Positions 889 to 20,618 are shown, counted from the first letter of the whole stretch. The stretch is 49,453 nt of DNA, filler included, from Catajapyx aquilonaris (GCA_000934665.2; 2 parts of 2 records of this genome joined end to end with filler, not necessarily neighbours in it), one strand, 5' to 3'. Notes: generated by a model from the letters alone, not told the origin. A program made the numbers and translations.

Positions 889-2557
889 TCACAAATATTT
901 CTTCCCTTTCCGGCTACTTGGCTTCGTGGTTACCTTCTGCATGGCGTAATTCAAACCCCACAAGACAAACGGAATTCTGACCACATACAGAATGACAAAC
1001 TGGAAGATCCAAAAGCGCAGTTTGGCGTCCCAGGAGCACATCCGGTAAAATTCCGAGACCTGGTAGTCATTGAGAACCCACATGAGGTAGAGGAACATGT
1101 CGTCGAAGGAGAAGACCTTGGTGGCCCTAGTCGTCTTCAGAGTCCCTTCGACGTTCATCCTCATGATGTACTCCTGCTCTTTGGTCATATTGGCCAGAGA
1201 GGCATACACCATCCCATCCACCACTTCCTGGCACCTGGTCTGCACCATGTAGAGGTTCCCAGAGCATGGGTTGTACCTGTCCTGGATGCCCAGGTGGTAC
1301 GACAACACCCGCCACATGTGAGCGAATCCTTCCAGGTCCTGCTTAGTCGCTCCGTGTATCCCTATCTTCTCAGGAGACAGAAGTATGGGTGCTATGATGC
1401 CCAGGACGGTCACTGCGCTGTCCATCTGGCTCACGTAGCACAGACTGTTTGGTACCTGCAAACATGCCATTTATAACGTCAGGATAAATCCGAAATCTCT
1501 CTGGTCACTGGTAGTAATCAGTGTCAGTGTTACTTTATAGTATAGCGTCTTGAAGCTGACCGTCACTAATCACGCTAACCTTGGACATTTTTTCCCTTTG
1601 TCATAATTAGCAGTACCCTTGTTAACAACTACTTACCATAGTAACTCCATGAGAAAGCTCGTGGGAAAATTCTGATAGTCAGAAACAGGTTGCTTCTGAG
1701 GGCAATTAAAAAGGTTCTCATTATAGTGCTCCTCCAAGTGATTGTTATGACATGACAATCGGTCTAGTACATTTAAAAATATAGCAGCTTAACAATGGAA
1801 GGAGCAATGCTTTCCGATATCGCGCTGTAGCTGTTTTATAATAGCCTAACCGGACGCTAACAACAAAATATTGGTTACTTGAAAGTCACCTTGCGCTTTT
1901 CGTGTTCGCTCTCGTCACGTTGTGTAATATATGCAAATGAACGTTAAAAATAACTGTACTTGAGAAAGGCGCAGTTGCATCACATCATTCGGATACCTGA
2001 AACTGCAACGGAGGCTGGTAGGCTCCCTCAGATGCCATGACCTTCCTGATGACCTTATAGAGGTTACACTGATTTTCTACATGAGCTTCTGACCCCATGT
2101 TGGCAGCTACAGTCTCCATCTCCTCAGGCTTCTGGTTGGACTCGGTGGCTGCCACTGTGTGCAGACGATGGACCTTCTTCATGTTCTGGTGTCCGGAAGT
2201 GGTCGGATCCCACAGGTCGCTCTCATACCATGACTTGAGGTACACCATGGTGATGAAGTTGCGCTTGGCTGCCTTCCTGATAGTCTCCAGGTTTCGGGTG
2301 TACAGGATTACCCTGAAGATGGGCTGCCAGACCCAGATGAACATCATGGCGAAGAAGTTGCCCACCAGGACGGGAACCAGGTACTTCTGGGAGAATTGCT
2401 GTCCTCGTGTGAACTTGTCCATGTCTAGCCACGGAGGAGGGGTGTCCACAGGGTGTCCTTCGTGAGCTGGAGTGACAGATCCGTCATGGAGGATCTGCTG
2501 GAGCAAAGATGGTTCTTCCGTGCTGATTGCATCGCAGCTTTTGGGATCTCCGCCCAT
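889..2557 (-). CDS. MpaB'/Lcp-like (DUF2236) oxygenase paralog 1; exons 2557-1997 and 1455-889; 375 aa
   Basis: Two ORFs join in frame through a 541-bp GT-AG phase-0 intron (CAG|GTATCC...TTTGCAG|GTACC). Family-like motifs: PPWLDMDKFTRGQQF, KRNFITMVYLKSWY, KVHRLH, SQMDSAVT, HMWRVLSYHLGIQDRYNPC, plus a hydrophobic C-terminus. Colinear with the intronless paralog at 22089. Confidence 0.88.
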
Positions 2558-5500
2558 TCTTTTGAAAAATGGAGAATGAAAGAAAGTGGTTTTGCAAAAT
2601 TAAGGTTTTGAACAAAGTGATGGAAAGAGGAGCACTTCCTGGGGGGAACTTTCTTCCAAGATTAGTATATCGGTCAATCTGAAGTGGATCATGCGATATT
2701 CTCTGGATTACTGACTATACTTCACAGTTTTGACCGCATTAATTATCGCCATCTGCATGAAGTGCGAATAATCGCATTCCTAATCTGCTGCACCTCGTTG
2801 CAACAAATTCTTCGATTTTTTTTTCCAGTTCAGATAACTTGTTCCATAATCACTTCGTATATATTTTCCAATGCTGTACTTTATACTCTGATAAAACACT
2901 GCTTAATTATAGGCCTATTGTCTAGTCATCATCTGTAGTTTACTCACTTGGACAATTTTAAATATTCATGATGGAAATAAAAATGTCTGTCTATCTATGT
3001 GTATAGGCATGAGATCACTGGGTCATTTAGGGAACTTCGATTGAAATATCAATAACGAACATCAGATTAATCTTATATTGGAATATATTTATGTTATACA
3101 GCATACCGGCTATACAGTATATTTTACGCAAGTGCCTTTTGCACACTGGAATTATTGTTCATGACACTGCTATTCCATGCGAATAGTAAAACAGCCTGTT
3201 AATTATAATGAACTTTATGATTTCTGTGGAACTAGAATATTGTAAAAACTGGGTTATTGCTCCATCGAAATTATGTGCTCAAACTCCACTCACCTGGTTG
3301 TTGTCAGGTAGCAATTGGGTATGAAGTGAACTGTATAAACATGTAACGCTGAATGCAAACTGGTTAGCACTGCCCCCTGGATTTCACCAGAAACCATCCA
3401 GCACGTACTGTACCAAATTACACTATACAACATATTTCGTAACGATGAAACAGCTCTTGCATTCATTCTTCACACCCCCTCGCATTTTATGCGATTCACG
3501 CGAGATCCAAAATCACGAAAATGCATGCGCAGAAGGAATGAAACGCGTTTTCTTCATCGGCAGCATGAGTATTTTTAAACGTGCCTCTTTTTTTTCACAC
3601 GCGTGAGCAAAATTTGCCTTGACATGCAGAAACAAAAATACACTTATTCTAAAAATGGTGCTCCAGGTGCTGTCAATAATTCTTCACCGTAAATATTGTG
3701 AAGAAAATGCACGTGATATTCCTAAGAAAAGAGCGTGTTGCATGCTTGCAGCAGTGGAAAACTGAAAGTGAAGAAAGTGATATTTGCTCAGGGCTGCCTA
3801 ATCCAAGACCTGTAGTGTCCAATCAACTTTTTTTGTTGCTGAAAAAGTCTAACGATCGACGAATGGAGAAATGCTTGGGGTGGGAGGGGGTTAAGAAAGA
3901 AAACAACATCCCCACCCTTCCGCCTCCTTAAAAAGTGCTTCAGTTAATAAGTGAAACTGAAAGCAAGGCATGCCAATATCTGACTAATCCAATCGATGGC
4001 TCTATACAGAGAATAGCTATAGAGATAACTATAGAGAATGTATCAATAAAAATATTCGTCAAAAACTAACCATTAATTTAGTTAAAATTATACCGGACTG
4101 TTAAATTTATTATATGCAGCGCAGCAAAAATAAAGAGCGCACTAGGCACGTTGAACATGACCAGATAGTATTTCATGTCATATTTATGTGATTTGGAGCC
4201 AAAAATAATTTATTGTATGACACCCAATGATATTTTAATTGTATGATTTATAACATGAAAAGCAAAAAAGATCCTGCCAACATGCTGGTTAAGTTATATG
4301 AGGAGCCGAGGCATCTAAGACCACTGAGCTAGAAGGAGATCAAACTTTAAACTTTATTACCTCCTTCTAAGTATGACCAAGAGCTAATGGTATGACGTAG
4401 GTTGTACTGTAGATGCATAAGGAAAATTTCATAAGTAGAAGATTCATAAGGTGTTGTAATATGGCTTGCAAATAATAATTTTATAAAGTGCCCAAGAAAA
4501 CTCTCCCAGCCCAGTATTACAGTTGAAGATAATACTGTCAGTATTACAGCATCACGTTATGCACGTGTTTTTTAAAAGGCGAAATGTTGCGTAATGGTGT
4601 GAGAAACTTCCCTTTCAAGCTTGAAATTTCCACTATTTTGCATGAAAAAATATTATTAAAACTGTGATCTAGTGAGTCATGCATTGTTTACTCAGTAATC
4701 TGGGTATTTATCGATTTATGGACTGATTTGTGAATTGTTTTGTGTGTATCATGCAAACAAGACACGCAGCTTATAATTCCACTAATTACATATACCGGTA
4801 GTACATTAGGTGCAGATTTCATCTGCATTAGATGACTCAACACGGAGCGGTGGAAAGAATTTGACAACATTTGCCGGTACCATTATTATTATTTTACTTT
4901 CTTCAGTTCCGTGCTTTTGATCATTATACGAACATTTGCATTTGACCATCACTTCCGGCTTGAAATCGATCGTGCACTTCATGTAACGGTTTCTAATAGC
5001 AAAAATACAGGTTTTACAACTTGATTTCAAATGAGGATATAATGTGCTTCGAACGGGAAGAAATGGGAAGGACAGTAGACGATCTGAATATTTATAGACA
5101 CACACGAAAATTGGCATGTAAGTGGTGCATTTTCCAAAAATTATTTTCCATAAGACCATAACTATTCATACTTGCTGATATCAAGATGTTCTAAACATAC
5201 TGGCCAAATAGGGGCTGGGTATAGACCGGGTCCGGTTCTTTAATGGCCTTATTTATGTTCATTAATGCTTATTTATTTATGTTCATTTATGTCCCTTTTA
5301 AAATGTCGCTGGAGATCCTTTTGGACATTATTTCAACGTGAGAGGGTCATGCCTGGGAAATAAAAGTAACGTAACACCGTCTGCAGTATACAGACATTCA
5401 TTGCAGGACTGGCAACATTTTAAAGATATCCAAAACATTACAAAAATACTCAAATACATATTGTCACTAAATATCACCATTACCACCTCTGGTTATAACC

Positions 5501-19430: not shown

Positions 19431-19432
19431 CA

Positions 19433-20618
19433 ATGAGCAACCAGAAGGTGGACATGACTGGCCGGACAACATGTCCGTTCGAGCACATGCAGACAGGTGC
19501 AAAGGTACCGGCTCACGAGGGCCACTCTGTGGACACTCCTCCGCCTTGGGTGGACCATGAGAAGCTCCGTAAGGGACAACAGTTTGTCCAGAAGTACTAC
19601 ACGTCCATCATGATGTCCCACTACTTCAGCGCCCTTTTGACCTTCGTTTGGGAGCCTATTTACAAGCTGATGACCTACACGGCCAACATGGCCACGGTCA
19701 GAAAGGCCTTTCAGCGGTCAGTGGACAGTGTCCGGATGATATCCAGCTGGTACGAAGGGGACATGTGGGACCCTAAGAGTGACTCGTACCAGAACATGAA
19801 GAAAGTGCAGGCCATGCATCACAGGGTGGCCATCATTGCGGATCGGAACAAGGAAAGAGTTGCTGCAGCCAGTGTCGACACAAAGGTACGAGTTTCGTCA
19901 CGTGATATCCGGTAATGTACAGTACTAATCCAGATTTGCTACGTAGGAGCATCCTGCTTTGATGTCTAGGTGTACCATGTGGGAGTGTATGAAGCAAGAT
20001 GCGATCCACTGCGAGTCGTTGTCTCCAACTAATTACACCAAGTACCACGTAGATCAGGATACATGCTTTATCAGTCAGTTGGACTCGGCTGCTGTGGTGC
20101 TGGGGGCTATCGGACCACTTGTGGTGTACAGAGAAAGGTTCGGGGTGCATGGAAGCACGGACGAAGAACTGGAGGACTTCTTGCATCTCTGGAGAATCAT
20201 CGGGTACCACATTGGGATAAAGGACGAGTACAACCCGTGTGCTCAGGGACTTGAGCATTTCTGCTACCTGTACGACAAGTTCATTTCGATGACCATTTAT
20301 CCAACCTTGGCCAACATTACTGCTGAAGAGGAGTACACCAGCAGGGTACTGGTCATGGCCACAAGGTCATTCTCACCTTTGGCGTACTTCAGCGGGATCA
20401 GCTTCGAGTCCATAATGATGTACGGGCTGTGGTGCCTCGGGCTGGATTTGCCCTCTGTGCAGAAGCAGGTCAGATGGTACCAGAGGGTCAAGTTTCATGT
20501 CCTCAAGTTCATAGTCACTTATGTGCTCAGCTACTCGGTCATTTACAAGCTCTTTAACGTCATCTTCAAGTTGGAGATTTACAGGCTGACCAGGATGAGG
20601 ACCAAGATGGTGGACTAA
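19433..20618 (+). CDS. MpaB'/Lcp-like (DUF2236) oxygenase paralog 4; exons ~19433-19885 and 19947-20618; ~374 aa (start codon uncertain)
   Basis: A 61-bp phase-0 intron (AAG|GTACGA...TACTAAT...CGTAG|GAG) gives VDTK|EHPALMSRCTMW, aligning with VDTSSHPKVAADCTMW of paralog 5. The start is taken as the first ATG after the TATAAAA at 19397. Confidence 0.87.

Follow-up and report, generated by a model that had tools for sequence, protein, structure and literature searches.

We examined a tandem array of five paralogous genes, P1 to P5, encoding MpaB/Lcp-like (PF09995-type) proteins in a 49,453-nt stretch of the Catajapyx aquilonaris genome (GCA_000934665.2; two parts of two records joined end to end with filler), which we refer to as the window. 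The coding frames of four of the paralogs are each interrupted once, at four different positions, and the reading that we favour, at a probability of roughly 0.55, is that most or all of these four introns (I1 to I4, numbered after their genes) were gained after the gene had duplicated. The support differs by intron: it is best for I3, it comes from parsimony alone for I2 and I4, and I1 is doubtful. P1 and P2 lie on the minus strand and P3, P4 and P5 on the plus strand, and a tblastn search with the uninterrupted P5 gave no further fragment of the gene in the window. The coding features, in window coordinates, are as follows.

889..1455, minus strand: P1 coding exon 2 with the stop codon (open frame and homology)
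1456..1996, minus strand: I1 in P1, at QFQ|VPN; 541 bp, GTATCC...GCAG, phase 0, weak donor, CTGAC motif at -24
1997..2557, minus strand: P1 coding exon 1 (open frame and homology; start at the first in-frame ATG, 5' limit putative)
6006..6749, minus strand: P2 coding exon 2 with the stop codon (open frame and homology)
6750..6807, minus strand: I2 in P2, at MVK|VQRLH; 58 bp, GTCAGT...TCAG, phase 0, CTAAT motif at -13
6808..7206, minus strand: P2 coding exon 1, from the first in-frame ATG (open frame and homology)
14814..15053, plus strand: P3 coding exon 1, from the first in-frame ATG (open frame and homology)
15054..15666, plus strand: I3 in P3, at PIFQ|VVLY; 613 bp, GTTGTG...CCAG, phase 0, weak donor
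15667..16551, plus strand: P3 coding exon 2 with the stop codon (open frame and homology)
19379..19885, plus strand: P4 coding exon 1 (open frame; first in-frame ATG, later ATGs being possible starts)
19886..19946, plus strand: I4 in P4, at DTK|EHP; 61 bp, GTACGA...GTAG, phase 0, CTAAT motif at -19
19947..20618, plus strand: P4 coding exon 2 with the stop codon (open frame and homology)
22089..23237, plus strand: P5 uninterrupted coding frame with the stop codon (open frame, tblastn)

All four insertions start with GT and end with AG, and joining the exons at the proposed junctions left four frames open over about 380-400 codons. All exon lengths divide by three, which puts the four introns in phase 0, and the exon-exon flanks left after splicing are MAG|G throughout (CAG|G at I1 and I3, AAG|G at I2 and I4). 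In the protein alignment the sites fall at columns 218 (I1), 157 (I2), 111 (I3) and 184 (I4), and each insertion is extra relative to the other four copies rather than intronised coding sequence. An earlier note on this DNA had described four unshared phase 0 introns at AG|G and a P5 with no coding intron, and this anatomy was borne out: P5 forms a single 387-codon frame (22074-23237, plus strand), and at the I2 site the sister genes read straight through, with AAG|GTA in P3 and AAG|GTC in P1. Its description of each intron as the only one of its paralog holds for the coding frame and not as a wider statement, as introns in the leaders would be invisible here.

The most informative of the four introns is I3, which is flanked by a direct repeat, TTCCAGGTTGTG / TTCCAGGTGGTG, whose spacing of 613 equals the intron length and which also surfaced in an independent repeat search. 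The features of I3 are the two repeat copies and an internal element, which resembles a miniature inverted-repeat transposable element (MITE).

15048..15059, plus strand: upstream copy of the I3 repeat, TTCCAG|GTTGTG, extending to 15065 at 14/18 matches
15515..15607, no strand: palindromic, TA-flanked MITE-like element in I3, about 93 nt, starting CAGTTG, with 34-nt arms that are 88% complementary
15661..15672, plus strand: downstream copy of the I3 repeat, TTCCAG|GTGGTG (repeat search, null test)

The two copies of the repeat match at 11 of 12 positions (14 of 18 when extended), and when AGGT and YYYNYAGG sites from the window were paired at random 200,000 times, only 0.3% of the pairs scored as high (p ~0.003). 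A dating of I3 by the decay of the repeat was dropped, the free positions being too few. Splicing does not account for the repeat, because the first bases of an intron have no splicing reason to copy the start of the next exon. The repeat is the footprint that would be expected of an insertion with duplication of an AGGT-containing target, the duplicated target supplying both splice sites. The MITE-like element is a secondary insertion within I3, presumably of Tc1/mariner type, and a diverged second copy of it lies near 34.55 kb (about 34540-34620), in the region of an INTS6-like neighbour.

The bodies of the four introns gave no match to the genes (blastn, word size 7) and no significant similarity to one another. 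The tandem-duplication intron of the Rogers model is thereby ruled out, since the intron bodies match no neighbouring exon sequence. The search for introner-like repeats proposed in the earlier note was run on this one window and found no second copy of any of the four introns in its 49 kb; the scan index likewise gave no match to I1, to I3 or to the protein. The last 12 coding bases before I1 together with the following GT (TTGCAGTTTCAG|GT, 1997-2010, minus strand) match the 3' end of I2 with two exon bases (TTGCAATTTCAG|GT, 6748-6761, minus strand) at 13 of 14 positions, with a shuffle fraction of 0.013. As this was the best pair among 12 comparisons, we judged it, after correction, to be a resemblance of splice consensus and rejected a kinship between the I1 donor flank and the I2 acceptor.

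The second line of evidence is the distribution of the introns on the family tree, a mapping that had also been proposed beforehand. A tree of 58 sequences unites the five copies in a single clade, with a support of 100 in the Shimodaira-Hasegawa-like approximate likelihood-ratio test (SH-aLRT), in which P4 groups with P5 (100) and P3 (98) with the pair of P1 and P2 (82). The intron sites are private to single members of this clade. By our count on the tree, four gains would suffice, against 10 site losses, or at least eight events if losses on one branch are pooled. Furthermore, none of the five copies has an interruption at MLL|YPDKFG, a coding exon boundary deduced for a homolog of the insect Diaphorina, and this agrees with a founder poor in introns. 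The mapping left one site less clear, as a second Diaphorina boundary possibly lies near I1.

We propose that the main coding frame was most likely unbroken in the gene that founded the array, and that most or all four interruptions would have arisen independently after the copies had diverged, each event inserting unrelated DNA at a MAG|GT "proto-splice" site. At I3 the target TTCCAG|GTGGTG would have been duplicated, as by staggered-break fill-in or a transposon-type target-site duplication, so that the upstream copy would have provided the donor GT and the downstream copy the pyrimidine-rich CAG acceptor. With splicing between the two copies the original frame would be recovered exactly, and the MITE-like insertion would have enlarged the intron later. 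I1 may share this mode of formation, with a weak footprint. I2 (58 bp) and I4 (61 bp) are ordinary minimal introns without a footprint of their origin.

The most serious competitor, which we nevertheless regard as unlikely, is differential loss: the founder would have carried three or four introns and each copy would have kept a different one, the others being removed by cDNA recombination or by conversion against an intronless paralog. A number of observations weigh in this direction and against gain. The duplicates are old, with a saturated synonymous divergence (dS) of 1.2-2.0, which leaves ample time for loss; the earlier note's view of intron gain caught within one array is therefore overstated. 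P4 and P5 share a tract about 95% identical over about 87 nt (19760-19850 and 22470-22560; columns 138-177), in which the fraction of identical codons is 0.88-0.95 against a background of 0.25-0.6 and which spans the I2 site, and P1 and P2 are 82-90% identical from column ~58 to ~145, across the I3 site. The tracts stop short of I4 by about 50 nt and of I2 by about 36 nt. These patches of near-identity at synonymous sites look like gene-conversion tracts, and conversion by an intronless paralog could readily remove an intron. A similar near-identity patch occurs between P2 and P3 at columns 294-325.

Further points on the same side concern the introns themselves and the outgroups. The I3 repeat is short, and its p value rises to ~0.013 after correction for four introns; the junction repeat of I1, GTTT(G)CAG|GTA(T)CC, is gapped and not significant (p 0.07-0.10), and no junction repeat was found at I2 or I4 (null fractions 0.49 and 1.0). 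Phase 0 and MAG|G flanks are common among old introns too, and intron loss usually outpaces gain in animals. The nearest relatives outside the array are only about 30% identical, and the outgroup comparison for gain versus loss draws on one insect, Diaphorina, through its isoforms. There, a duplicated 37-residue alternative exon reveals two coding exon boundaries, PMAR|RG and MLL|YPDKFG, so an insect homolog does have coding introns. Finally, PMC3488318 discusses the criticism that Dollo-type counting, as applied to paralog families, underestimates loss.

Against differential loss stand the at least eight separate losses that it needs where four gains suffice, including reciprocal losses within P1/P2 and within P4/P5. 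It also leaves the I3 junction repeat unexplained, and conversion requires that an intronless donor already existed at each site. The earlier proposal of four gains into an intronless ancestor is thus favoured by the single clade, the private sites and the I3 repeat, and the conversion tracts and the Diaphorina boundaries keep loss standing beside it; we infer gain from the former.

A mixed history, in which I1 would be an old arthropod intron lost in the four other copies and I2, I3 and I4 later gains, seems to us quite unlikely as a whole, though I1 taken by itself may be ancestral, a point that again tells against gain of all four. The PMAR|RG boundary lies within 1-4 residues of the I1 site when measured from the N-side anchor, and no significance attaches to the junction repeat of I1. 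Measured from the C-side anchor, however, the boundary is 11 residues off, across a variable linker that is not confidently alignable, the position comes from one insect species and indirectly from its isoforms, and the I1 donor, GTATCC, is weak.

A more specific version of gain would make the array a local focus of intron birth, where repeated break repair between paralogs, of which the conversion tracts ending 36-50 nt upstream of the I2 and I4 sites would be the trace, occasionally captures filler DNA at AGGT sites, one per copy. Recombination among duplicates would itself seed new introns in such a setting, because the repair of the breaks would capture the filler; we consider this improbable.

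All of these histories take the four insertions to be spliced introns, which they almost certainly are. We infer splicing from selection on the downstream exons, the junctions being read from the DNA itself, which is a weakness of the case for gain as well. The ratio of nonsynonymous to synonymous divergence (dN/dS) was 0.25-0.53 in all 10 paralog pairs; for the segment that follows the last of the four sites it was 0.20-0.38 (four pairs tested), and 30 invariant columns are common to all five C-terminal parts. Since purifying selection and these invariant columns indicate that the downstream exons are translated, the insertions must be removed. Read-through of any of the insertions would run into an in-frame stop within 4-13 codons, and the lengths of the four introns are all 3n+1, so an unspliced copy would lose a conserved half of the protein, and unspliced RNA of all four would be expected to be a target of nonsense-mediated decay. 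The combination of 3n+1 lengths and early stops would suit a view in which new introns are tolerated if their retention triggers this decay, but it may be due to chance (about 1 in 27).

The splice signals of the four introns vary in strength. A branch-site motif and a pyrimidine stretch upstream of the acceptor belong to the U2-type intron consensus, and we found YTNAY motifs at -24 (I1), -13 (I2), -12 (I3) and -19 (I4), with 6-10 pyrimidines among the 12 positions from -15 to -4. The usual donor consensus is GTRAGT; the weakest donors, GTTGTG in I3 and GTATCC in I1, match it poorly and belong to the two introns with junction repeats. The donor of I2, GTCAGT, recurs as one of the two GT hexamers that end INTS6-like coding frames in the window, the other being GTGAGT. 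Weaker splice sites have been reported for novel Drosophila introns, in a paper whose title links them to nonsense-mediated decay (Farlow et al., PMC2809761). That the insertions are not introns and the interrupted copies are pseudogenes or truncated genes is hardly credible: two of the four donors are weak and the junctions are called from sequence, but downstream of each insertion a frame of 188-294 codons stays open, in register at GT..AG, with a dN/dS of 0.20-0.38 and the invariant residues of the family kept despite saturated synonymous divergence.

Few intron gains in animals are well documented, and how they come about is debated. The array would make a compact, internally controlled test case for gain versus loss: its five gene copies act as controls for one another, and I3 still shows how two splice sites came from a duplicated target. 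It could also serve to test whether gene duplication favours intron insertion.

The phenomenon itself is of a kind already known, from post-duplication gains, from neointrons made by break repair or target duplication, and from introners. Neointrons of Daphnia pulex carry direct repeats at their opposite ends and are attributed to staggered double-strand breaks (Li et al. 2014, PMC4202315), and the introns of the array resemble the Daphnia cases described there in lying in what we took to be a crustacean-type genome, in consisting of unrelated DNA, in having short direct repeats at the ends and in the lack of a source sequence. They differ in that the Daphnia neointrons were dated as young by the presence or absence of the intron among alleles, whereas ours sit in old paralogs that were compared within the window only, and a significant end repeat was found in just one of the four, I3, unlike the pattern reported for Daphnia (PMC4202315).

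An excess of gains in paralogous families was reported by Babenko et al. 2004 with a method that has been disputed (PMC3488318). As in that account, intron positions vary between the paralogs here, and gain after duplication is the more parsimonious reading; theirs was a genome-wide statistic and ours is a single array with private positions (PMC3488318). Introners have been reported in lineages that include copepods, with target duplications of 3-9 bp (Gozashti et al. 2022, PMC9860276). I3 is like them in the target-site-duplication-like repeat that provides its splice sites, but introner families consist of many similar copies, and the four introns of the array are mutually unrelated with no further copy in the window (PMC9860276). 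Lastly, I3 shares with the AGGT tandem-duplication introns the origin of donor and acceptor from separate AGGT copies (Hellsten et al. 2011, PMC3265369; Ma et al. 2016, PMC4974935). Introns of that model consist of copied exon sequence from end to end, whereas I3 duplicates only 12-18 nt and the ~595 nt between match nothing in the gene (PMC3265369, PMC4974935).

We also considered what the five genes encode. A profile search recovered 1096 relatives, of which the named ones come from insects (Blattella, Lycorma, Diaphorina, Cimex and Camponotus) and crustaceans (Penaeus, Macrobrachium, Halocaridina, Eriocheir, Portunus, Armadillidium and Artemia) and are uncharacterised; several homologs bear the UniRef label "ER-bound oxygenase mpaB/Rubber oxygenase catalytic domain". 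P5 matched the Pfam domain PF09995 (MPAB_Lcp_cat) with 22.8 bits (E 1.1e-4), below the gathering cut-off of 23, and the Pfam scan gave no PF09995 match to the exon pieces of the other copies. Two of five scanned homologs passed (P0021 with 26.5 bits and P0002 with 29.7) and three were below the cut-off.

The AlphaFold2 model of P5 is all-helical, with a predicted local distance difference test score of 92.2 and a predicted template-modelling score of 0.90. Its top Foldseek match is 5o1l_A, a latex-clearing protein (Lcp), at E 3.4e-4 and a template-modelling score of 0.56, which was the only PDB match at E<=0.001. The folds are alike, and identity in the structural alignment is just 12-15%. Among 54 sequences, H140 of P5 hardly varies, and it may correspond to the haem-ligating histidine of Lcp. 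The family is thus a distant animal branch of the Lcp/MpaB fold, and the array comprises five functional genes, long duplicated in tandem, for an all-helical, MpaB/latex-clearing-protein-like and probably haem-dependent oxygenase of arthropods.

Sister to the array in the tree (support 98) is a clade of 13 rows, among them the named decapod, isopod and Artemia proteins. The earlier note had offered a horizontally acquired gene as one possible ancestor, for which, as for any recent horizontal origin, we found no support: homologs occur across insects and crustaceans, the family is vertically inherited in arthropods, and we rejected horizontal transfer into this lineage, as the array nests among arthropod homologs and is sister to a crustacean clade.

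Several other sources were examined for exon structure outside the array. Isoforms from Artemia diverge only ahead of the main frame, where alternative 5' exons join four codons before the main-frame methionine. No internal boundaries were found in the pairs from Cimex, Penaeus and Macrobrachium or in the Logan-derived pairs P0166/P0004 and P0167/P0006, which differ at the N-terminus or by small changes; among the isoform pairs compared, Diaphorina alone gave internal boundaries. Database proteins that start or end inside the domain made up 13 of 150 matches, and they were rejected as a source of exon boundaries, the cases examined being limited by their contigs or homologous up to the first residue (P0072 has a 489-aa cluster mate, P0146 lies on a 3.7-kb scaffold, and P0095 is homologous up to its first residue).

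A metagenome scan gave two loci, L001 and L002, neither of which was retained as an outgroup. L001, on a 1.8-kb contig, consists of a single 524-codon frame and may be either DNA or RNA. L002 (2122-3534, on an AT-rich contig) is a distant eukaryotic homolog of the family, probably from a protist or fungus, with three frames split by short AT-rich gaps, and its frame breaks are unlike any of the four sites.

Upstream of the main frame we observed acceptor-like sequences in three of the paralogs. In P3, TTATTCCACAG|ACACCGCCACCATG stands directly before the first ATG (14790-14813), with TTATTCCACAG 12 nt upstream of that ATG; TTTTTCAAAAG|AATG precedes the first ATG of P1 (about 2558-2580, minus strand) and TTGCCCTCAG|AATG that of P4 (about 19360-19378). 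A leader intron shared by P1, P3 and P4 is possible and, if present, would argue against a processed retrocopy as the founder. Remnants of retrocopying, such as poly(A) and flanking repeats, are not expected to survive here because the copies are too old (dS>1.2).

No Rfam families were found in positions 1-24000 of the window. It contains 95 N positions in all (24752-24851, 35359-35363, 18585 and 26693), which are assembly gaps; the five genes are free of them, and the single N at 18585 sits upstream of P4. The other gene identified is the INTS6-like neighbour at 33-49 kb. Two of its frames, 36062-36568 and 45001-45480 (minus strand), match human INTS6 over 129 and 145 residues (E 5e-61 and 1e-61), and the strength of this match, unusual for an arthropod, suggests a slowly evolving lineage.

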